A DNA stretch of 52,938 bases, taken from the NCBI GenBank assembly GCA_964526375.1, contig CAZGLK010000002.1, positions 1 through 52,938 of the forward strand, written 5' to 3'. The stretch is from an uncultured Candidatus Saccharibacteria bacterium (GTDB lineage Bacteria > Patescibacteriota > Minisyncoccia > JACQLN01). Shown here piece by piece: positions 188-34,403 of the stretch. Under the pieces are notes generated by a model. The model saw only the letters and a list, made by a program, of their open reading frames with translations. It was not told the origin of the DNA and searched no databases. Numbering within the stretch: the stretch's first letter is position 1; each line of letters opens with the position of its first letter. The position numbers and the translations under genes are program-made.

Positions 188-607
188 TTAGCTTACTAGC
201 TTCCTAGGCATTAGGAGAAATGATACACACCTACAAAGACCTGATAGTATGGCAGAGATCGATGGAATTAGTCGTGGCTGTTTACGAATTGACCGAACAA
301 TTTCCAAGGGAAGAAATATTTGGTTTGGTTTCTCAAATGAGACGAGCAGCCGTGTCTATACCATCAAACATCGCTGAAGGCAGGCTAAGAGGTTACCGCA
401 AGGAATATAAGCAGTTTTTGCTAAATGCTTTTGGGTCAGGCGGCGAGTTGGAAACACAAATGGAGATAGCTAAAAGATTGCCCAAAACAAGCAAATTGGA
501 TTACCGCAATGTCGATCAGCTACTGGACGAAACCATGCGCATGTTAAATTCAATTATCAATAAACTAAAGCTGCCTAGCGCCTAATATCCTAGTAAGCTA
601 GTAAGCT
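188..607. repeat. Inverted-repeat-flanked cassette carrying a four-helix-bundle gene (family E arms)
   Basis: The left arm AGCTTACTAGCTTCCTAGGCATTAGG (188-215) is the reverse complement of the right arm CCTAATATCCTAGTAAGCTAGTAAGCT (581-607). The same arms occur without a gene at 20523-20618. Confidence 0.75.
220..585 (+). CDS. Four-helix-bundle protein (23S rRNA intervening-sequence protein / Avd-like family)
   Basis: The 121-aa ORF shows the family hallmarks YKDLIVWQ..., RRAAVSIPSNIAEG and GSGGELETQ. The stop codon lies inside the right IR arm. Confidence 0.9.
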   Translation: MIHTYKDLIVWQRSMELVVAVYELTEQFPREEIFGLVSQMRRAAVSIPSNIAEGRLRGYRKEYKQFLLNAFGSGGELETQMEIAKRLPKTSKLDYRNVDQLLDETMRMLNSIINKLKLPSA

Positions 608-7985: not shown

Positions 7986-8457
7986 GAATAAGGAATTAGG
8001 AATTATGAATTAGGATATGAATTAGGAATGGTGTAAATTATGAATGAATACGGAAATCCAAGCAAAATACAATCATTTACTGATTTAGACGCCTGGAAAG
8101 AAGGGCATAAACTGGTTTTAATGGTCTATGAGACAACCATGACTTTTCCCAGAGAAGAAACTTTTGGCTTAACAAGTCAAAAAAGACGCTGCGTGGTATC
8201 CATAACTTCTAATATAGCCGAGGGATTCAGCCGACAATCCTACAAAGAAAAGGTGCGGTTTTACTCCATGGCGCAGGGATCGGTAACGGAGCTACAAAAT
8301 CAGCTACTTATAGCCAGAGATGTTGGTTATGTACCAACCGACAAATTCCAAACAATCGCAGAACAGTCAGTAAAGGTTCATAAAATAATCAGTGGATTGA
8401 TCAAGAAAACAAAAACGCTGTCTTAATTCCTTATTCCTAATTCATTATTCATAATTC
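7986..8457. repeat. Inverted-repeat-flanked cassette carrying a four-helix-bundle gene (family D arms)
   Basis: The left arm is GAATAAGGAATTAGGAATTATGAATTAGG. The right arm CTTAATTCCTTATTCCTAATTCATTATTCATAATTC is its approximate reverse complement. Confidence 0.7.
8040..8426 (+). CDS. Four-helix-bundle protein (23S IVS / Avd-like)
   Basis: The 128-aa ORF carries FTDLDAWKEGHKL, SITSNIAEGFSR and GSVTELQNQL. Confidence 0.9.
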   Translation: MNEYGNPSKIQSFTDLDAWKEGHKLVLMVYETTMTFPREETFGLTSQKRRCVVSITSNIAEGFSRQSYKEKVRFYSMAQGSVTELQNQLLIARDVGYVPTDKFQTIAEQSVKVHKIISGLIKKTKTLS

Positions 8458-26747: not shown

Positions 26748-26808
26748 TCTACCAATGAATCAGTAAATTTGTAACTATTAGTAATTGGTAGGGGGTCACC
26801 GTTCTTTC

Positions 26809-26841
26809 AAAACCGCCCCGAGCTTGTCGAGGGGCGGTTTT
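26809..26841. terminator. Hairpin at the left edge of the island, overlapping the fic stop
   Basis: The hairpin is AAAACCGCCCC-GAGCTTGTCGA-GGGGCGGTTTT. It is preceded by GGGGGTCACC and GTTCTTTC, and a near-identical hairpin lies at 34369-34403. Confidence 0.7.
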
Positions 26842-27943
26842 ATATCTTACGGTATCTTGTGGTTCGGCCAAGTCCGAGCCGCTCCACTTTTTTCAAGCGG
26901 AGGAGTTTGTCCAGCGCTTGATTAATGGTTCGACGAGCAACGCCCGTGGCTTTGGAAATCTCTCCGGGTGTGGCCGCGTCGGTTTTTTGTAGATAATTCC
27001 ACACGGCCAATTGTTTTGGCGACAAGAGTTTTTCTATGTTCTCCTTCGAGAGAAGGTCGACCGCCAGTTGCGCCTGTTTCAATAACACGCCGAAAAAGAA
27101 ATCCAACCAGGGCGCAATATCTTCGTGCCCCGATTTAAATGTCTTTTGACTTCTTCGTAAGGCCACATAGTAATCGGGCTTATTATCTTCAACCAACTTC
27201 TCGTGGGGTACATAAGGCACATACAGATATCCCTCTTTGAGTAAAAGAAGATTGGTGAGAACGCGGGACAGCCGGCCGTTGCCATCTTGGAATGGATGAA
27301 TGTTGAGAAATTCAACCAGGAAGTTCCCTATAACAAGGAGAGGGTGATATTTTTTCTCCGAGAGAGCTTCCTGGGTCCATTCCACCAGCTCCTGCATCTC
27401 TTTAGGAACAAGGTATGCCGGCGTGGTGTCAAAAAGAACGCCGACTGATTCTCCAAGCTCGTTAATCATCTGCACCCGGTTCTCTTGCTTCTTGTATTCG
27501 CCGCGGTGGATTTGGTCTTTCTCTACATATTTAAGAAGCTCGCCATGGAAATGTTTTATTGAGCTTTCCGAAAAGCTTAAACTTTTCCCCGCCGCCGCTA
27601 AAGCTTTGGCGGGCGGGCATGAATCAAACACATTCTCCAGAAGCTCGTAGTACCCCCGCACTTCCTGCTTATCGCGATCAGTGAACTTCTGTATGGCAAT
27701 GCCGCGCATCATTTTTTCAATATCTTCATCGGAAAGTTTGGCCCCCTCAATGCGGGTGGACGCCCCCGTAGAGGTAACCAAAGTTGACCGCTTGAGGCGG
27801 CCTAAAACTTGAGGGCTAAGCTGGGCTCCAGCGATCCACTGCCCCTTAAGCTCATCTATTTGTTTGAACTTTGACCAGACCTCGGAGGATAGCCCTTCGA
27901 GCCGTAGGTCAAAACGAGGTTTTTGAGTAACCGGCTCGTCCAT
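26840..27943 (-). CDS. fic: Fic/DOC family protein with a C-terminal winged-helix domain
   Basis: The 367-aa ORF has the Fic motif HPFQDGNGRLSR. Its C-terminus AVWNYLQK...TPGEISKATGVARRTINQALDKL is wHTH-like. Confidence 0.9.
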   Translation of the reverse strand: MDEPVTQKPRFDLRLEGLSSEVWSKFKQIDELKGQWIAGAQLSPQVLGRLKRSTLVTSTGASTRIEGAKLSDEDIEKMMRGIAIQKFTDRDKQEVRGYYELLENVFDSCPPAKALAAAGKSLSFSESSIKHFHGELLKYVEKDQIHRGEYKKQENRVQMINELGESVGVLFDTTPAYLVPKEMQELVEWTQEALSEKKYHPLLVIGNFLVEFLNIHPFQDGNGRLSRVLTNLLLLKEGYLYVPYVPHEKLVEDNKPDYYVALRRSQKTFKSGHEDIAPWLDFFFGVLLKQAQLAVDLLSKENIEKLLSPKQLAVWNYLQKTDAATPGEISKATGVARRTINQALDKLLRLKKVERLGLGRTTRYRKI

Positions 27944-28069
27944 ATGATCTTAATAATCTTACATTTCAAGTATAGAAGATTATGCAAGATTAATCAATGG
28001 CGTTCTGTGGGCAAAAGCCCTATCTTACATATATGCAGGAAAGCCCACAAATAAAGGACTTTTTTGTGC

Positions 28070-28098
28070 TTGACAAGCATACCATGATTTGCTATAAT
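28070..28098 (+). promoter_or_regulatory. Consensus sigma70-type promoter P1
   Basis: TTGACA lies at 28070-28075 and TATAAT at 28093-28098, with a spacer of exactly 17 nt. Confidence 0.7.
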
Positions 28099-28218
28099 GG
28101 AACCATACGATAGAAATGCTGGTTGGGGCTGTTTAGCAGGGGTGCCTGCACCGAGCTAGTCGAGATGCCGGACCCAAACCCCGAAAGCTGGCATAGTAAT
28201 CCTTCACAGGGCAGGGTC

Positions 28219-28247
28219 TTGACAAACAGATATGCTTGGTATATAAT
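28219..28247 (+). promoter_or_regulatory. Consensus sigma70-type promoter P2
   Basis: TTGACA lies at 28219-28224 and TATAAT at 28242-28247, with a 17-nt spacer. Confidence 0.7.
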
Positions 28248-28253
28248 GGAGGT

Positions 28254-28426
28254 GTAAGCTGAAAGTACCTAATAAAACATAATAAAGTCTAAGCTTCTAG
28301 AGGAGAGAGTCTGGGGCTGGGATATTAAGGTATATTAAGGTGCAGGTTATATATAGCCCCAAACAACAACCCAAAAAGCGGTTGAAAGATTCTTTCCTTT
28401 AAGAAGGCGTCTTTCAACCGCTTTTT
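28254..28426 (+). ncRNA. Candidate sRNA of about 170 nt, bounded by P2 and an intrinsic terminator
   Basis: There is no credible ORF. An internal hairpin GGGGCT...AGCCCC is present. The terminator stem is AGCGGTTGAAAG (28377-28388) with CTTTCAACCGCT (28411-28422), followed by TTTT. Confidence 0.5.
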
Positions 28427-28697
28427 AGATATCTGGCGAGGAGAAAGATGGAGGAGAGAATTAAGCCGTGGTGGCGAGGCTTCGGGTTTAGCCCAAGTCT
28501 GGCTACTAAACACGTTTTGAGAATATTGGCGGAAGCGGAAATGCAACCCGCAACCATAGGGCAAAATTCCGCGGCGCAAGTTCTCATCAATTCTTCTCTA
28601 TCTTTCTCCCCAACCACAAGCGAAGGGAGAGTTAAATTCCTGATGTTCTTTTCAAATCTTTTCCGCGGCACCGACGTATTCGGGCAGGGGAAAAATT

Positions 28698-29129
28698 ATG
28701 AAGGCCACAAGTTTCTTGTTTCTCGCGGCGCTCTTCGTCAGTGCAATAGGCTGCACCGACACCCGGCCTTTTTACAGGTCGGTTCTGCAGGATAAAGAAG
28801 TCGTTGTGAAGCTCACTGAGGCAATTTGGCTGCATGGCGATACTACGTGCGCCATCACCAAGCTGGCCCGTCAGCTGGATGCCGAAAGACGAGCAGACGT
28901 CCGGAGGCCGTATTCGCCCGTAAACGCGGATCGTATGCTTTGGGAGGAAATCCATAAGGTTGTCATAGACAATTGGTATTCTTCCACGGATACCATGCGT
29001 GCAGAAGTACGGCGGACCTTGGACCTTTGGCTTTCTCCCGAGAAATCAAGTAAGGCCGAGGTGTGGGTGATGCCTGTAACGGTCCATTACCGCTTTGACC
29101 CCGATCAGGTTTATCTGACAAAGAAGTAA
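28698..29129 (+). CDS. Hypothetical lipoprotein
   Basis: The 143-aa ORF has a signal peptide with the lipobox FVSAIGC. A GGGGAAAAATT ribosome-binding region precedes the ATG. Confidence 0.7.
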   Translation: MKATSFLFLAALFVSAIGCTDTRPFYRSVLQDKEVVVKLTEAIWLHGDTTCAITKLARQLDAERRADVRRPYSPVNADRMLWEEIHKVVIDNWYSSTDTMRAEVRRTLDLWLSPEKSSKAEVWVMPVTVHYRFDPDQVYLTKK

Positions 29130-29172
29130 AGGATTGGGAGGCTCTGCGAACAAAAAAATTCGCATTCCTCCC

Positions 29173-29235
29173 TCTGTCTCCCGATGTATGTCGGGACTGA
29201 TGAGCCCTTTGATAGTTACCGCAGGGCGAAACAGA
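29173..29235 (+). ncRNA. Type III hammerhead self-cleaving ribozyme
   Basis: Stem III pairs TCTGT (29173-29177) with ACAGA (29231-29235). The cleavage triplet is GUC, with C17 at 29178. Stem I is TCCCGA-TGTATG-TCGGGA (29179-29196). The core CTGATGA lies at 29197-29203. Stem II is GCCCT-14 nt-AGGGC (29204-29227), and GAAA lies at 29228-29231. Confidence 0.85.
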
Positions 29236-29279
29236 AAATTGCTTGCACCGAGCTAGCCGATATTCTTTGAAAATCAATA

Positions 29280-29537
29280 TTAGCGGTAAATGTCTTTGCG
29301 GTGGTCAATGTCAAAAAAGATCGCTGTTTCTGCGTGCTGCAAATAAAAAAGCACCCGGAAATTGCGAGTGACCCTGAAAGAAAGAGCATGAGGGAGGATT
29401 TTAACTTTTTTGATGTGCAGCCGCGGGTCGCACCAGTTCTTTTGAAACGAACTCTTTTGAGTAAAATAGAGCCGCTGAATTTCCTTAGGCAGTTTGTTTA
29501 GTGACCTTTCAAAATCATCGGTCTGGATTATCTCCAT
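29280..29537 (-). CDS. RelE/ParE-superfamily toxin
   Basis: The 85-aa basic ORF overlaps the upstream small ORF by 10 nt. Its C-terminus FRVLFYLQHAETAIFFDIDHRKDIY resembles the RelE/YafQ type. Confidence 0.7.
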   Translation of the reverse strand: MEIIQTDDFERSLNKLPKEIQRLYFTQKSSFQKNWCDPRLHIKKVKILPHALSFRVTRNFRVLFYLQHAETAIFFDIDHRKDIYR

Positions 29538-29737
29538 ACGGAAGACACCGGCGGATATTTCTTTATGGCTTTTTCATAGGATCGTTTGATCCGTTGCGGG
29601 TGAGCATAGCCGACCAGATCTTCTTGAGGGAAAAGAAATTCAACCTCGCTTCTTAGCAGGCGGAGTTCCTCAATGACCGTTCCCAAGAGCTCGTTAGTGG
29701 CCGCAGCAGAGGTCTTATCTTTTGTGAGTATTTCCAT
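29528..29737 (-). CDS. Cognate antitoxin (family not recognised)
   Basis: The 69-aa ORF lies immediately upstream of the toxin and overlaps it. Confidence 0.55.
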   Translation of the reverse strand: MEILTKDKTSAAATNELLGTVIEELRLLRSEVEFLFPQEDLVGYAHPQRIKRSYEKAIKKYPPVSSVWR

Positions 29738-29782
29738 TAACCATGATTATAGTTTATCACCAAAGGTATGTCAATTTTCTTT

Positions 29783-29861
29783 CTAACCCACCCCTCAACA
29801 ACACGCGGATACACGCGGATCAAAACGCGGATACACGCGGATAGATTGAAGGGTGAGTTAG
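29783..29861. repeat. Hairpin element with an ACGCGGAT word loop (unit A head)
   Basis: CTAACCCACCCCTCAA (29783-29798) pairs with TTGAAGGGTGAGTTAG (29846-29861). The loop holds four ACGCGGAT words. Confidence 0.75.
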
Positions 29862-29939
29862 GGAGAGAAGGACTCTTCCGAAGGCGACGCGTGCCTATAA
29901 AGTGCGAGCCATGTAAACACCTGAAAGGAGGTGAAAAGC

Positions 29940-30197
29940 ATGGCAAGTAAGGATCTTTGGGTGGAGATTAAACTCCACCCGGAGGCCGAGCCGGTTTGGG
30001 CTCGGAGAGAGGTCCCGCCCGCAGTTGTCCAGGAGTTCCAAAGGATCCTGGATACTGGGGGTGGTGAGCACATCTCCTTTCCCTATCCCGACGATTCTGA
30101 AAGAATCGTTTCGGAGGTGGGGGGGCGAGATGTGGTTCTCTCTGTGCCCTCTCGGGCACGGGGAGGGAACTACGTGATCCATTTTTTGGGTCACTGA
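29940..30197 (+). CDS. Small acidic hypothetical protein (unit A payload, 85 aa)
   Basis: The ATG lies 9 nt after AAAGGAGGTGA, a near-perfect SD. The leader is conserved with unit B. I recognise no family. Confidence 0.6.
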   Translation: MASKDLWVEIKLHPEAEPVWARREVPPAVVQEFQRILDTGGGEHISFPYPDDSERIVSEVGGRDVVLSVPSRARGGNYVIHFLGH

Positions 30198-30234
30198 TTC
30201 CCGTTCCCGAAACCCGCCCCCACCGCGGTAATGT

Positions 30235-30466
30235 GGGGAGATGGCGCAGGTTGACGCCATACTGAAGCGGTCTTGATTGACGCGATACTAACCCGTGCCT
30301 GATGGCAGGCAGCCCGTGGAAACACGACGGGTATACGGGGAATAAGTGTCAGTAGAGACCGCCAGTCCAGACGAACAGCAGGACAACACTCCTTGCTGTT
30401 CAGGATTCAACCACAGGGCCGCCAAAGAGCTCGGCCCTAATCCCGAAGCACTCGGGAAAGCTCAAG
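30235..30466 (+). repeat. 232-nt structured element, copy 1 (candidate unclassified ncRNA)
   Basis: By eye it is identical to 31722-31953. It contains a 3-way junction (ACCCGT/ACGGGT closing GCCTG-ATGG-CAGGC and CGTG-GAAA-CACG). Further hairpins are GAACAGCA../..TGCTGTTC, GGGCCG/CGGCCC and CCCGA/TCGGG. Confidence 0.7.
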
Positions 30467-30641
30467 ATTTTGGGAGAGTTGCCAGAGATGACAGCTCTCC
30501 CCCTTATCCGAGTTCATCGTCTCTTTCCGCGTAAATCAGCGTTCTAATCTGCGTTGATCCGCGTAAAGTAAGGGTGGATTCAGAGGAGGGAAAAACATTC
30601 TCATATTCTGCAGAATGTTAGAATGTTGGTTCTTTGAGAAA

Positions 30642-30869
30642 TTAAGCAGGAGTTAGAACAACTTCAACGGGAAGAGGAACGGCCGTATGTTTCGCCTTCA
30701 TTCGGTGGGCAAAATTAAGCACCGTAAAACCCTTAACCTTGCGAGTTTTGGGGTCAAGGCGAAGAATCACATCGTTGGCGGCCTCTTCGCTGCGATCTTT
30801 TGCGGATGGCTTGCCTTGAGAGATGTAGAGTATGTCGGCCTCTTGGTCGTAGTAATAATAGAGTTGCAT
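30642..30869 (-). CDS. DUF2283-type small protein (antitoxin-like)
   Basis: The 75-aa ORF contains YYYDQEADILYISQG ... VKGFTVLNF, typical of DUF2283. Confidence 0.7.
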   Translation of the reverse strand: MQLYYYYDQEADILYISQGKPSAKDRSEEAANDVILRLDPKTRKVKGFTVLNFAHRMKAKHTAVPLPVEVVLTPA

Positions 30870-30873
30870 AATT

Positions 30874-31146
30874 TTAATGTTTGATTTTAGAGGTTAAGTA
30901 TATGGTAAGTATAAAGTTGCGTTGATTGGTTTTCACTACTACCACAAGATGTTTCCTCTGGCTGATTGGACTATAGCATATTTGCACCCTTGGATCAAAT
31001 TTCGATTGGCTAATAATACTGGGTTTGGCAAGTACTTGCTTAATCCGTTTCAGATAGCGTCTAACTTCTGGGTGGAATTTAAGAACATGCTCAACCCTTT
31101 CGTTAGTCAGCTCAACTTCTCCAAACGGCGAATCAAACTTCTTCAT
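30874..31146 (-). CDS. Putative toxin partner of DUF2283 (DUF4258 / RelE-barnase-like)
   Basis: The ATG at 31146 (MKKFDSPFGEV) gives a 90-aa protein. It contains ERVEHVLKFHPEV and LVVVVKTNQRNFILTIY, and lies 4 nt upstream of the DUF2283 gene. Confidence 0.55.
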   Translation of the reverse strand: MKKFDSPFGEVELTNERVEHVLKFHPEVRRYLKRIKQVLAKPSIISQSKFDPRVQICYSPISQRKHLVVVVKTNQRNFILTIYLTSKIKH

Positions 31147-31190
31147 TTTGATATTATACCTCAACGCTAATCCGTAGCCAATTTTCTTCT

Positions 31191-31292
31191 CTAACCCACC
31201 CCTCAACAATACGCGGATTAACCCCTCGACTTCGCTCAGGGCAAGCGCGGACTAAACGCGGATCTACGCGGATAGATTGAAGGGTGAGTTAG
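31191..31292. repeat. Hairpin element with an ACGCGGAT word loop (unit B head)
   Basis: The arms are the same as at 29783-29861 (CTAACCCACCCCTCAA / TTGAAGGGTGAGTTAG), but the loop is longer. Confidence 0.75.
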
Positions 31293-31377
31293 GGAGAGAA
31301 ATGCTCTTCCTATCAAAGGCGACGCGTGCCTATATAAAGTGCGAGCCATGTAAAACACCTGAAAGGAGGTGAAAGAT

Positions 31378-31686
31378 ATGGCAAAGGCATTTTCTTTCGT
31401 CCTTTACACCCAAGCCGGCGGGTACGACGGCTATGTGGTGGTTCAGGATGAGAGGACGGCAGACGCCACAGACGATTTGATTCGATCTGTGGTGGATCCC
31501 GAAGGGGAAATTTCTTTCGTCGGGGGAGTCCATCTGACTCCTTTTGGCGAGGGAGAACCCCAATCCCTCTGGCAGACAATCTGTCAGGAAGAAGAGGGGT
31601 TCCTTTTCGGAGGTGATTTGGCCGCAATGCTCGCCCGGACGCCAGCAGAGAAGCTGGTGAACCGGGTGGAGTACTACGGTCATTAA
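31378..31686 (+). CDS. Small highly acidic hypothetical protein (unit B payload, 102 aa)
   Basis: The ATG follows the same AAAGGAGGTGA leader. The protein is unrelated to the unit A payload, and both end in GH. Confidence 0.6.
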   Translation: MAKAFSFVLYTQAGGYDGYVVVQDERTADATDDLIRSVVDPEGEISFVGGVHLTPFGEGEPQSLWQTICQEEEGFLFGGDLAAMLARTPAEKLVNRVEYYGH

Positions 31687-31721
31687 GCCGCCCCGCCCTA
31701 ACCCTCCCCCTAGGGTCACAA

Positions 31722-31953
31722 GGGGAGATGGCGCAGGTTGACGCCATACTGAAGCGGTCTTGATTGACGCGATACTAACCCGTGCCTGATGGCAGGCAGC
31801 CCGTGGAAACACGACGGGTATACGGGGAATAAGTGTCAGTAGAGACCGCCAGTCCAGACGAACAGCAGGACAACACTCCTTGCTGTTCAGGATTCAACCA
31901 CAGGGCCGCCAAAGAGCTCGGCCCTAATCCCGAAGCACTCGGGAAAGCTCAAG
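31722..31953 (+). repeat. 232-nt structured element, copy 2
   Basis: By eye it is identical to 30235-30466. Confidence 0.7.
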
Positions 31954-32094
31954 TTTTGGGGAGAGGGTCTCAAAAAAGAGAATCTCTCCCCACCTTATCC
32001 GAGTTCATCATCCGCGTTTATCCGTTTGCCAATCTGCGTATATCCGCGATGTGTATGGTGGATTCAGAGGAGGGAGGTGTTCTTTGAAAAAAAA

Positions 32095-32307
32095 TTACAA
32101 ATCTTCTTCTGAAACGCCAGCTTGTTTTAGGATTGAATGAAGCGTGCCCTTGGGCAGGTCTTTGGTGTGGTAGGGTACGGATGCTCGTTTCTTCTTTTGC
32201 GGGTGATAAAAAATATAATGGCTTCCAGTAGCATAGTCTAACTGAAAGCCAAGACGTTTGAGAATAACAATAACCTTTTTGGGTGTAAGAGACGGGATCT
32301 TAGGCAT
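32095..32307 (-). CDS. hicA: HicA toxin
   Basis: The 70-aa ORF contains KKVIVILKRLGFQLDYATGSHYIF and LPKGTLHSILKQAG. Confidence 0.88.
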   Translation of the reverse strand: MPKIPSLTPKKVIVILKRLGFQLDYATGSHYIFYHPQKKKRASVPYHTKDLPKGTLHSILKQAGVSEEDL

Positions 32308-32557
32308 GGGCGGAAGCCTTTTCGCGGACAGGTTCCTTTATCTGAATAGAAGCAATGAATGTTTCTTCGTCTGAAGGAATTAGTTCACGATGTTTTCTAA
32401 GGCTCGCGATATATCCTTCGACGGCATCCCGCGCCATATTTTTGGCTTCGGTAAGGTTTTTCCCGTAACTAACGCAACCTGGCAAGGCCGGAACAAAAAC
32501 CGTAAACCCGCCCTCCGGTTCCGGACGAAGAATGATATTGTAATTGAGTATTTTCAT
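32300..32557 (-). CDS. hicB: HicB antitoxin
   Basis: The ATG at 32557 gives MKILNYNIILRPEPEGGFTVFVPALPGCVSYG. The gene overlaps hicA by 8 nt, and the longer track ORF (to 32869) is a spurious extension. Confidence 0.85.
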   Translation of the reverse strand: MKILNYNIILRPEPEGGFTVFVPALPGCVSYGKNLTEAKNMARDAVEGYIASLRKHRELIPSDEETFIASIQIKEPVREKASAHA

Positions 32558-32762
32558 ACACCAATATGGTATCAAACAAAATCCAATGTTGCAAATTTTT
32601 CCCCTAACCCACCCCTCAACAACGCGCGCCTGCCTGCGGCAGGCAGGGATATACGCGGTGTGATCTCTCACAAGATAGTTTAGTAAGTTGTTTTGTGAGA
32701 GGTCGCACGGTGCGGCTTCTGTAAAGACTTGGGGCCAATCCCAAGCAGGAAAGGAGGGTGCT

Positions 32763-33350
32763 ATGAAAATAGTGCTCTGCGGGCCGCCAAGGTCCGGCAA
32801 GTCCTGCTTGAGGGAAGGCCTCAAGCAGGCGGTGCGGCGTATTCCTGGAGCGCCGTATCCGTATGTCATAACCGGGTGCCCTGACGGGGAGGGCGCCTGG
32901 TTCCAGGAGACTGTGAACTTGGATCCCGAATTGGCGGCGCGGTGTAAGGCCGCCTATAAATCCAAGTTCACAACGGAATTCGTGCGGAGGGTCGCGGATT
33001 CCGTAAAAAGTTGTAACCTTCCTTTGACGCTCGTGGACATTGGTGGCATCCCGAGCGCTGAGAACGAGGAGATTTGCTCCTCGGCCACCCACGCCATTTT
33101 GCTGGCGGGCGATCTTGATCGTCTGCCCGAGTGGCGCGAGTTCTGCGGGAAGCTGGGTCTCCGCATCATCGCGGAGATCCATAGCGATTACCGTGGAACT
33201 GAAGACACCGCTCCTTCGCTCGGCGAGGATGGTGTCTGGAGTGGATCGGTTCATTACCTCGAAAGAGGCGAGCCGGTCCACGAGCGCCCGACAGTCAAGG
33301 CGCTCGCCGAGACCCTCGCGCAGATGGCTACTGCAGCAGAGGAGAACTAA
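32763..33350 (+). CDS. P-loop NTPase (possible Csx3-associated ATPase module)
   Basis: The ATG at 32763 follows GGAAAGGAGGG. Walker A is GPPRSGKS, and LTLVDIGG is Walker B/DxxG-like. The protein is 195 aa. Confidence 0.6.
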   Translation: MKIVLCGPPRSGKSCLREGLKQAVRRIPGAPYPYVITGCPDGEGAWFQETVNLDPELAARCKAAYKSKFTTEFVRRVADSVKSCNLPLTLVDIGGIPSAENEEICSSATHAILLAGDLDRLPEWREFCGKLGLRIIAEIHSDYRGTEDTAPSLGEDGVWSGSVHYLERGEPVHERPTVKALAETLAQMATAAEEN

Positions 33351-33486
33351 AACAGCCGCTCGGCGCGTTCCTTGCCAGCGCGTCCGGGTTTCCAAAAAAC
33401 AAAGGCTCAAAAAAAAGAGCCGCCTCTCCCAAGCTTGCCATAGTTTGGGTGACAAGAGGGGTCTCCTTGAGAAGAAAGGAGGAGAT

Positions 33487-33795
33487 ATGGCGGCGTATAA
33501 AATTTTTTTGGAGGGCGGAGACGTCCTCCGGGTCGGGTTCGGCGACCCGGCCCAGAACGACGCGATCTGCCGGGACGCCGCCCGGCAGCTGGAGGAGCTT
33601 GTCTCCTCCGGAGCCCTGGCCGGTGGCTCAGTTATTAAAATAAACGGCCCCGCCTCCTTGCCCGTGGCGGTGGTGTTCGCTCACGCGATTGGCCACCTCT
33701 ACGAGGCGGTGGCGGTGTTCGACCCCAAGCTGGGGAAGTATGTCGTGGCGGTTAGCCACGGTGTCCAGCTCGGGGTCGGCGACCTGATCGACTAG
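33487..33795 (+). CDS. csx3: Csx3/Crn3-like protein (putative cyclic oligoadenylate ring nuclease)
   Basis: The ATG follows GAAAGGAGGAG and the protein is 102 aa. IKINGPASLPVAVVFAHAIGHLYEAVAVFDPKLGKYVVAVSHG...GDLI matches, from memory, the Csx3 pattern GRGPIWL..H..H..VAVYDPRLG..VVVQSH..GDVI. Confidence 0.55.
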   Translation: MAAYKIFLEGGDVLRVGFGDPAQNDAICRDAARQLEELVSSGALAGGSVIKINGPASLPVAVVFAHAIGHLYEAVAVFDPKLGKYVVAVSHGVQLGVGDLID

Positions 33796-33860
33796 CCATC
33801 GGTCAGGAAAAAACTCCCGAGTGGCGCTCGGGGCATTCACCTGAAAGGAGGTGAAAAAAC

Positions 33861-33995
33861 ATGGAGGAGTTCGGCCGCTTTGTCGCGGCCATCCCGCCAC
33901 GGGACGTTTTGGCCCTGTTGGTGGGGTGGGCGGGCCTGCTCCTTTGCGTCGCTGACGCAGTGGAGCGGCTCCTTAACGAGAAATTTCCTCGTTAA
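33861..33995 (+). CDS. Possible 44-aa hydrophobic peptide (third payload behind the shared SD)
   Basis: CACCTGAAAGGAGGTGAAAA lies at 33839-33858 and the ATG at 33861. My translation gives MEEFGRFVAAIPPRDVLALLVGWAGLLLCVADAVERLLNEKFPR. Confidence 0.4.
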   Translation: MEEFGRFVAAIPPRDVLALLVGWAGLLLCVADAVERLLNEKFPR

Positions 33996-34368
33996 AAGGT
34001 CCCCGCCCTCGTCAAATCCCCGGTCACGGAGCCGGGGTTGCCCGAAAGTCCACGGGCGTAAAAGTATGGGTAAAAGGCCAGGGGGTTGCCTGACGCGCAC
34101 TCGTCAAAAACCCTCTCTGTTCTCCGCCCAAGGCGGACTGACGAGCTCCCACTTTCGCCAAGAAGCTTCAGCGGGCAGGCAAAAGAGTGGAAACAGACCG
34201 CCGTGGTGGGCGGACGAGAATTGGGGAAATCTTTTATGCCCCCCTGATTCGCAAAAACACCAGTCCTTATAAAGCTGTGAGCTGGAAAAATCTCTCTCCT
34301 TGGTTTTGTTGAAGGTTCTTTGAGAATTTTTAACGAAACAATCCAGTTCGCAGCTTTATGGGGGCTAC

Positions 34369-34403
34369 CAAAACCGCCCCGATGTTATGTCGGGGCGGTT
34401 TTG
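34369..34403. terminator. Hairpin at the right edge of the island
   Basis: The hairpin is CAAAACCGCCCC-GATGTTATGTC-GGGGCGGTTTTG, preceded by GGGGGCTACC. It is nearly the same as 26791-26841. Confidence 0.7.

Follow-up and report, generated by a model that had tools for sequence, protein, structure and literature searches.

Proposed sister cassettes with a shared folded leader and unrelated acidic open reading frames in a Candidatus Saccharibacteria genome

The mRNAs of hok-type (type I) toxins and the fold-back inhibition of the IS10 and IS50 transposases are the closest functional analogy for two small plus-strand units, A and B, in a 52,938-nt stretch of DNA from an uncultured Candidatus Saccharibacteria bacterium (assembly GCA_964526375.1, contig CAZGLK010000002.1). 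This stretch, called the window below, is contig C2 of the genome that was analysed (816 kb, 59 contigs, 97% complete), and coordinates without a contig name refer to it. As in these systems, each unit would give a compact folded and presumably long-lived mRNA in which the Shine-Dalgarno (SD) sequence and the start codon are sequestered by an upstream complement, and as for hok-type genes the units lie in an addiction-type region rich in toxin-antitoxin (TA) genes. In addition, a third copy of the SD hairpin and a sister of it on contig C8 precede hydrophobic single-helix peptides of 32-44 aa, which are typical of type I toxins. In contrast, the open reading frames (ORFs) of units A and B predict acidic proteins of 85-102 aa that are not hydrophobic, whereas a type I toxin is expected to be hydrophobic and shorter than about 60 aa. 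Furthermore, an antisense RNA promoter was not found and there is no sequence relation to the type I families of Rfam.

In their arrangement of arm, cargo and arm, with inverted tandem repeats of ~8 nt, the units resemble the ORF-bearing intervening sequences of 23S rRNA and the octamer-armed cassettes of PF05635 genes, and here too gene-less copies of the same arms are present elsewhere in the genome. They differ from the PF05635 cassettes in their cargo, which is neither PF05635 nor a nuclease but a leader, an orphan ORF and 300 nt of structured RNA. Unlike the intervening sequences they are located in a TA island and not in rRNA, and no RNase III was found. Sedentary chromosomal integrons and clusters of attC sites lacking integron integrases (CALINs) also hold small, apparently promoterless ORFs and TA cassettes between hairpin boundaries, in arrays whose content varies between relatives. 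However, units A and B come without IntI, with sites that alternate, with constant RNA modules at the 5' and the 3' end and with a different short boundary word, GTTCTTTGA, which is common to a cassette in another family. Anti-CRISPR and anti-defence loci likewise combine one conserved upstream block with small acidic orphan genes that vary, but here no promoter is recognisable, an aca regulator and a mobile-element context are missing, and no family could be assigned. In Acinetobacter plasmids, the pdif modules, which are often TA pairs, lie between 28-bp XerC/XerD sites of alternating orientation, whereas the sites of units A and B are hairpins of ~95 bp with octamer arrays, and no link to the single Xer-like recombinase was seen.

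The explanation that we favour, with confidence that is evenly divided, is that the units give translation-gated, very stable cassette mRNAs with swapped cargo. Units A and B would be sister copies of a small gene cassette, located between inverted arms of four ACGCGGAT octamers. The cargo would begin with a 5' untranslated region (UTR) of ~75 nt, followed by the variable ORF and by ~300 nt of structured tail, and would be transcribed as a whole into one extremely folded, very stable sense-strand mRNA. At the end of the UTR a two-tier hairpin would pair a cis anti-SD mimic (CACCU) with the SD and GCCAUGU with the start codon. Because this hairpin sequesters both, translation would be off by default and would require that the hairpin is opened. 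The orphan acidic ORFs would have been exchanged by recombination within the constant flanks.

Anatomy of units A and B and of their leader

Unit A extends from 29773 to 30600 and unit B from 31181 to 32080, with ~170 nt in common upstream and ~370 nt in common downstream. Their features are the following:

29773-29867, plus strand: left arm of unit A (repeat families D2, D3 and D6), with four tandem ACGCGGAT octamers (29803-29845) between its outer and its inner arm
29868-29939, plus strand: 5' leader of unit A, from folds
29861-29879 and 29882-29896, plus strand: small conserved hairpins of leader A, from folds
29896-29901, plus strand: lone TATAAA box
29908-29944, plus strand: two-tier hairpin of leader A with the SD (29924-29934) and the AUG (29940-29942)
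29940-30197, plus strand: ORF A, 85 aa, orphan, with a hyper-structured coding region
30198-30494, plus strand: structured 3' tail of unit A, with a 244-nt core (30235-30478) near-identical to tail B
30495-30600, plus strand: right arm of unit A, which corresponds to the left arm in inverted and diverged form, its four octamers (30526-30564) being reversed
31181-31298, plus strand: left arm of unit B, its octamer array broken by a 23-nt insertion
31299-31377, plus strand: 5' leader of unit B, with the SD/AUG hairpin at 31345-31382
31378-31686, plus strand: ORF B, 102 aa, orphan, with a hyper-structured coding region
31687-32080, plus strand: tail of unit B and, at 31986-32080, the right arm of this unit

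The alignment of the two units starts at 29773/31181, passes through ATGGCAA up to base 7 of the ORF and then ends abruptly. It restarts at the last two codons (Gly-His-stop) and runs for ~370 nt, including a 244-nt block that is 99-99.6% identical. Between these flanks the ORFs are unrelated, with an E-value of 2.6 in the protein comparison and no similarity as DNA, and neither BLASTN nor TBLASTN detected a source of the variable segments within the genome. The initial annotation of this DNA had described a constant module with variable, unrelated cargo, and this is what was found: constant 5' and 3' modules that are sharply set off from the cargo at the start codon and the stop codon. The almost identical ~100 nt that it had reported upstream of both ORFs are also present (29846-29939 against 31277-31374, 89% identity over 98 nt in BLASTN), as are the named indels TA and A, next to a 4-nt and a 23-nt insertion in unit B. 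Of this ~100-nt leader the downstream part qualifies as 5' UTR, whereas its first part (from 29840), put at ~28 nt or at about 40% of its length, is the inner end of the repeat arm. Identity is uneven along the flanks, with ~89% in the leader, ~80% in the right arm and ~99% in the core.

In both units a conserved AUG follows the SD at a distance of 7-8 nt. These ATGs are located at 29940 and 31378, while the program-made ORF list starts three codons earlier at in-frame GTGs. The 16-mer CACCTGAAAGGAGGTG at the ribosome site has exactly three copies in the 816-kb genome (29918, 31356 and 33838), all of them in the island described below; the bare SD AAAGGAGGTGA has 18.

SD and start codon are buried in the same hairpin. 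Its inner stem, CACCU/AGGUG, covers half of the SD, and a 7-bp outer stem, in which the upstream GCCAUGU pairs with the start codon, takes up the AUG fully. A CACCT/AGGTG hairpin had been proposed before; it is real and larger than claimed, as the outer stem was not part of that proposal. Folds of 43-44 nt reach -18.4 kcal/mol (A) and -17.4 kcal/mol (B), with z-scores (z) of -5.3 and -7.3, and the SD/AUG hairpin alone reaches -16.9 and -15.9 kcal/mol, respectively. The hairpins of leader A are unchanged between the isolated fold and a fold of 680 nt. Two substitutions between the units fall into the outer stem and keep the pairs (G-C/U-G to G-U/U-A), and the remaining indels and substitutions of the leaders fall in loops or linkers. 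Although only two sequences can be compared, differences that spare the stems suggest a conserved hairpin.

The 3' tail of the 16S rRNA (C44:1054-1110; loci L032-L036) has the sequence GGAUCACUUCUUAUCU in this genome, as it has in four relatives of the family, and carries CACUUCUUA in place of CACCUCCUU. One of two same-order relatives has a third, non-canonical tail and the other a canonical one, and the tail is canonical in all four of the more distant class relatives that were read. Loss of the anti-SD motif (CCUCCU) has been reported for part of the Parcubacteria (PMC9297842). The SD of the units pairs with the host tail over nine contiguous positions, including two G-U wobbles, and this duplex has -11.2 kcal/mol, compared to -17.5 kcal/mol with a canonical tail. 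The near-perfect SD of the initial annotation is therefore near-perfect for the canonical anti-SD and not for the host. Because the host 16S rRNA lacks the canonical anti-SD, the SD binds the host tail more weakly than the cis hairpin, and a gate of this kind would for that reason matter more in this host.

GGAGG is found before the starts of 43 out of 643 long ORFs and in 10 out of 643 control windows, therefore some use of SD sequences is likely in this genome. Among the payload genes of the island and of a second array on contig C8 it is found upstream of 8 out of 10, compared to ~7% genome-wide, so that a canonical SD marks the cassette genes in this genome. Most genes of the genome have no SD, and many promoters are placed 7-8 nt upstream of the ATG, implying leaderless mRNAs.

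Folding and coding potential of the units

Units A and B, and also unit C, which follows in the island and carries a split Csx3-AAA pair, are strongly folded as RNA. On the plus strand z is -14.2 (A), -13.7 (B) and -12.5 (C), on the minus strand -8.3, -5.9 and -10.3, and the plus strand has more G-U pairs. This sense-strand bias of the structure points to selection on RNA and not on DNA. Unit A as a whole reaches a z of -15.7. In sliding windows three blocks with z of -4 to -8 coincide with units A, B and C, whereas TA genes and core genes stay near 0. The ORF segments (z -9.8 to -11.4 for ORF A, -7.4 for ORF B) are folded as strongly as the tails (z -7.3 for unit A). An Frpo-like single-strand promoter in the tail was considered and rejected, since the fold has many branches and does not form a single long hairpin with a promoter.

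Hyper-structure is also seen in the known protein genes of unit C, with z of -10.6 for AAA and -5.5 for Csx3. The same is true for a ~80%-identical AAA-Csx3 cassette in a genome of another family (G147), where it lies beside a minus-strand TA pair, but not for a more distant homologue in a third genome (G112).

Despite this folding, both ORFs show codon periodicity (p 0.008 for ORF A and 0.0003 for ORF B) of the usual coding pattern, with 44-47% G at codon position 1 and an A/T-rich position 2. In the three tails codon periodicity is absent, and almost every plus-strand frame has stops (1-5). The chance of the frame staying open is 0.08 for ORF A and 0.047 for ORF B, and both frames span exactly from the shared AUG to the shared tail. 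Genetic code 25 (TGA = Gly) would lengthen ORF A and was rejected because the core genes are intact under code 11. On balance, ORFs A and B are somewhat more probably translated than untranslated.

The product of ORF A has 85 aa with an isoelectric point (pI) of 5.45, a net charge of -4 and a grand average of hydropathy (GRAVY) of -0.30, and the product of ORF B 102 aa with a pI of 4.25, a net charge of -11 and a GRAVY of -0.13. Their net charges are at the 3rd (A) and 0.3rd (B) percentile of the long ORFs of the genome. The payloads are thus acidic as first described, whereas "very D/E-rich" was an overstatement, as aspartate and glutamate together (D+E) amount to 15-17%. ORFs A and B have no match in Pfam, PHROGs, PADLOC or PDB, and two HMMER matches to ORF A were discarded as translated tandem-repeat junk.

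Several results weigh against coding cassettes with a translational gate. No sigma-70-type promoter was detected on the plus strand of leaders A and B, relaxed thresholds included. For this reason transcription of the units can only be presumed and the shared module is a translation module at best; the earlier statement that it "drives" the ORFs is valid in the sense of translation and finds no support in the sense of a promoter. The 5'-terminal hairpin could also stabilise the mRNA instead of gating its translation. There are just two full copies, both in one genome: exact-pattern scans for the leader hairpin in metagenome and genome contig collections gave no match, and the relatives examined do not have the leader pattern. 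In both ORFs the mirror antisense frame is open too. Neither ORF has a relative among 5.8 billion and 1.84 billion proteins, searched by word index (at near and longer lengths), exhaustive HMMER and the ESM Atlas. Language-model recognition of the two proteins (1965 and 2091) stays under 2300, a value reached by 91% of known families. Structure prediction, which had been proposed for both proteins, gave no usable fold: the single-sequence AlphaFold models have a pLDDT of 52 (A) and 40 (B) and are too poor to justify fold searches. Finally, excision by RNase III at the arms, as in rRNA intervening sequences, was rejected because the search for RNase III domains (PF14622, PF00636) was negative in this genome, which is 97% complete.

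A 31-nt BLAST match in a relative (G011) was rejected as a counterpart of the leader, being a strong SD before a small peptide beside a radical-SAM gene, without the CACCU arm. The left-arm 19-mer has two matches in each contig collection, all in unrelated contexts and in a number expected by chance. In Rfam no family was found for leader, ORFs or tails, either in the gathering scan of the whole window or in the E-value scan of 29700-34400.

Some of these results would also fit non-coding units, each of them one long structured RNA in which the ORFs are incidental to a G+C-rich, hairpin-rich sequence and the SD-like motif is a structural element. ORF segments with folding as strong as that of the tails (z -9.8 and -7.4), orphan proteins with low recognition scores and low pLDDT, an open mirror frame and a host without canonical anti-SD are all in line with this. 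However, the significant codon periodicity of the universal type is seen in both ORFs and in none of the three tails, and the frames run from a conserved AUG 7-8 nt past the SD exactly to the conserved tail. Moreover, the proven protein genes AAA and Csx3 of unit C are equally structured, therefore strong structure is no argument against coding here. We regard non-coding units as unlikely.

What the proteins might do was addressed by the initial annotation with the suggestion that a common module expresses anti-defence factors of the Acr-like or DNA-mimic type. This would be compatible with gated cassettes, and the small size of the proteins, an acidity unusual for the proteome, the orphan status that is typical of such genes and an island with Fic, three TA pairs and the split Csx3-AAA pair all fit. 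It rests on acidity and neighbourhood, because Pfam, PHROGs and PADLOC gave no match to an Acr or anti-defence family and PDB gave none at all, AlphaFold gave no confident fold, and there is no aca-type regulator and no phage or plasmid gene nearby. Classical DNA mimics have a D+E content far above that of ORFs A and B. An anti-defence role of the cargo is therefore very doubtful.

Arms, octamer arrays and origin of the units

Alignment shows that the right arms are homologous to the left arms in inverted orientation, each being a site of ~95 bp, and these sites alternate in orientation along the array. The left and right arm of a unit are able to pair with each other better than shuffled controls. 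As single-stranded DNA, the left site folds into a hairpin with the octamer array in its loop (z -4.4 in A, -2.6 in B), whereas for the right sites the fold is weak (z -1.6 and -1.1). The stem of the left site, of 5+5+4 bp or longer, has the ends ..CTAAC / GTTAG.. and two symmetric C-A mismatches, without bulged bases.

Arrays of the ACGCGGAT octamer are found at ~35 places in the genome, often as compact gene-less 4+4 palindromes, and also in relatives. Three palindromes of ~85 nt, each with 4+4 ACGCGGAT-type octamers, are inserted at three places in the RNase P RNA gene (C4:6755-7393, L048:256-894; Rfam RF00010, 103.6 bits), which has 639 nt compared to the 367 positions of the model. Further arrays are seen in a lepA-like GTPase gene (C4:1125-2312), apparently in frame as judged by eye, and a glycosyltransferase-like gene also appears to hold arrays in frame (C1:29247-29285 and 29872-29910). 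Long repeat hairpins abound in the genome, in part within RNA genes, although no RNase III domain was found. Ten genes for the 23S rRNA intervening sequence protein PF05635 are each bracketed by inverted arrays of their own ~8-nt repeat; three are located in the window (235-552, 1548-1850 and 8082-8396) and the others on seven other contigs, and their arm repeats differ from those of units A and B.

A simpler origin of the shared flanks would be recency only, i.e., a tandem duplication of ~1.45 kb followed by two accidental replacements, with a leader that has no function. There are just two copies, 1.4 kb apart, their tail core is 99% identical and relatives are not found elsewhere. Yet the flanks are unevenly diverged (leader ~89%, right arm ~80%, core 99.6%), the ORFs share nothing and have boundaries exactly at the start and stop codons, and the differences of the leaders spare all stems. 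Furthermore, the SD hairpin is found a third time, independently, before another small ORF, and on contig C8 the array likewise combines one constant tail with different ORFs. We consider recency as the whole explanation improbable.

Integron cassettes were likewise suggested by the initial annotation. In such integron-type gene cassettes the hairpin sites would be attC and the leader a conserved cassette start, and they are the least probable of the alternatives: small ORFs interleaved with oppositely oriented TA modules, ends of the left-site hairpin (..TCTAAC / GTTAGGG) that match the R''/R' consensus at 6/7 positions and an island absent from the same locus in seven relatives would fit, but there is no integron integrase (the sole tyrosine recombinase, a PF00589 protein on contig C29 that is Xer-like, scores 86 bits with TIGR02249, for which the cut-off is 265), the orientation changes from one site to the next as it never does in integrons, the stems have symmetric C-A mismatches instead of extrahelical bases, the hairpin loop is a genome-wide octamer array, and constant untranslated blocks at the 5' and 3' side are foreign to integron cassettes.

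The island, related arrays and significance

Units A, B and C belong to an island of 7.6 kb (26801-34402) that separates the PBP gene from ruvB. Seven family relatives have 0.5-3 kb at this place, either empty or with one large secreted-protein gene, therefore the island is an insertion specific to this genome. The gene left of the island was rejected as an anchor for synteny because it has no counterpart in the family relatives, and PBP and ruvB served instead. A second, diverged PBP-ruvB locus is found on contig C47 (1-6048, locus L047) with 72% and 87% protein identity, and holds the large secreted-protein gene of the relatives in place of the island. The genome bin thus probably mixes two related populations.

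The minus strand of the island carries Fic and three type II TA pairs, with the payload units between them on the plus strand. Each TA pair has a consensus promoter with a -10 box that ends 7-8 nt before the ATG, so the TA genes of the island are leaderless. The TA pairs and the end of unit C comprise the following features:

29280-29737, minus strand: ParE/RelE-like TA pair, adjoining unit A
29774-29746, minus strand: consensus leaderless promoter of the ParE/RelE-like pair, abutting the left arm of unit A
30642-31146, minus strand: DUF4258/DUF2283 TA pair, placed toward unit B as the ParE/RelE-like pair is toward unit A
32095-32557, minus strand: HicAB TA pair, placed in the same way toward unit C
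33836-33857, plus strand: third copy of the SD hairpin, with an inner stem of 7 bp and no outer stem (-12.3 kcal/mol)
33861-33995, plus strand: 44-aa ORF, a hydrophobic single helix with a GRAVY of +0.60

The third SD hairpin and the 44-aa ORF form the end of unit C, before the third structured tail, and the 20-mer ahead of this ORF is identical to that of unit A. A third copy of the motif before a hydrophobic 44-aa peptide, which had been noticed earlier, is thereby accounted for by the 16-mer at 33838. Directly upstream of the hairpin there is a minus-strand terminator-like hairpin with a U-run (33832-33816). An antisense RNA over the 44-aa ORF would end there, and no promoter for such an RNA was found. 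Inside the units no credible minus-strand promoter was detected either, the sole match at relaxed thresholds being weak (8/12, in unit A).

The second cassette array (C8:7136-11700, locus L053) has a tail of 169 nt behind two different ORFs at 99% identity, four copies of an 87-nt end block that each end in GTTCTTT, and a duplicated RelE-like gene. It also carries a 32-aa hydrophobic ORF behind a strong SD, a sister mini-gene of the 44-aa ORF. The tail of this mini-gene shares its core with the third tail of the island (33996-34326), including a compensatory U-A to C-G change in a stem.

The word GTTCTTT(GA) terminates each unit of the island (at 26801, 29264, 30629, 32079 and 34315). Genome-wide it is found within 45 nt upstream of 26 out of 160 SD-led ORFs, compared to 0.9% of background windows, and it brackets the homologous AAA-Csx3 cassette of the other-family genome G147 (locus L060). 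This word might mark the boundary of cassettes, act as a signal in the 5' UTR or mimic the variant anti-SD of the host. In the unit that precedes unit A, the tail slot is filled by a match to the type III hammerhead (29171-29237; 37.6 bits, E 4e-6), which does not reach the Rfam gathering score of 48.5.

Beyond the gated cassette mRNAs that we favour, units A and B might belong to an undescribed, RNA-centred kind of cassette in bacteria of the candidate phyla radiation (CPR), which resists the flanking RNase-type toxins (HicA, RelE-like); we judge this quite unlikely, though less so than an anti-defence role or mere recency. Such an arm-bounded, self-contained RNA would bring its own translation gate, a canonical SD together with a cis anti-SD. 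It would also bring a constant structured 3' domain, or a hammerhead ribozyme in the neighbouring unit, while arbitrary ORFs would be swapped in. The hyper-structured RNA of the unit might then remain intact and translatable while the toxins destroy the unstructured, leaderless mRNAs of the host.

If true, the proposed cassettes would show how accessory genes are expressed in a lineage that is without a canonical anti-SD and in which most of the host genes are leaderless or have no SD. The cassette genes would import a canonical SD together with a built-in mimic that masks it. The leader would be tied to octamer-armed hairpin cassettes with a new, non-enzymatic cargo. Protein-coding RNA that is folded as tightly as viral or viroid-like RNA would occur in a bacterial chromosome and would there be confined to cassettes. 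As the tight folding is seen in known genes (Csx3, AAA) as well as in the orphans, selection for structure in coding regions would become directly testable.

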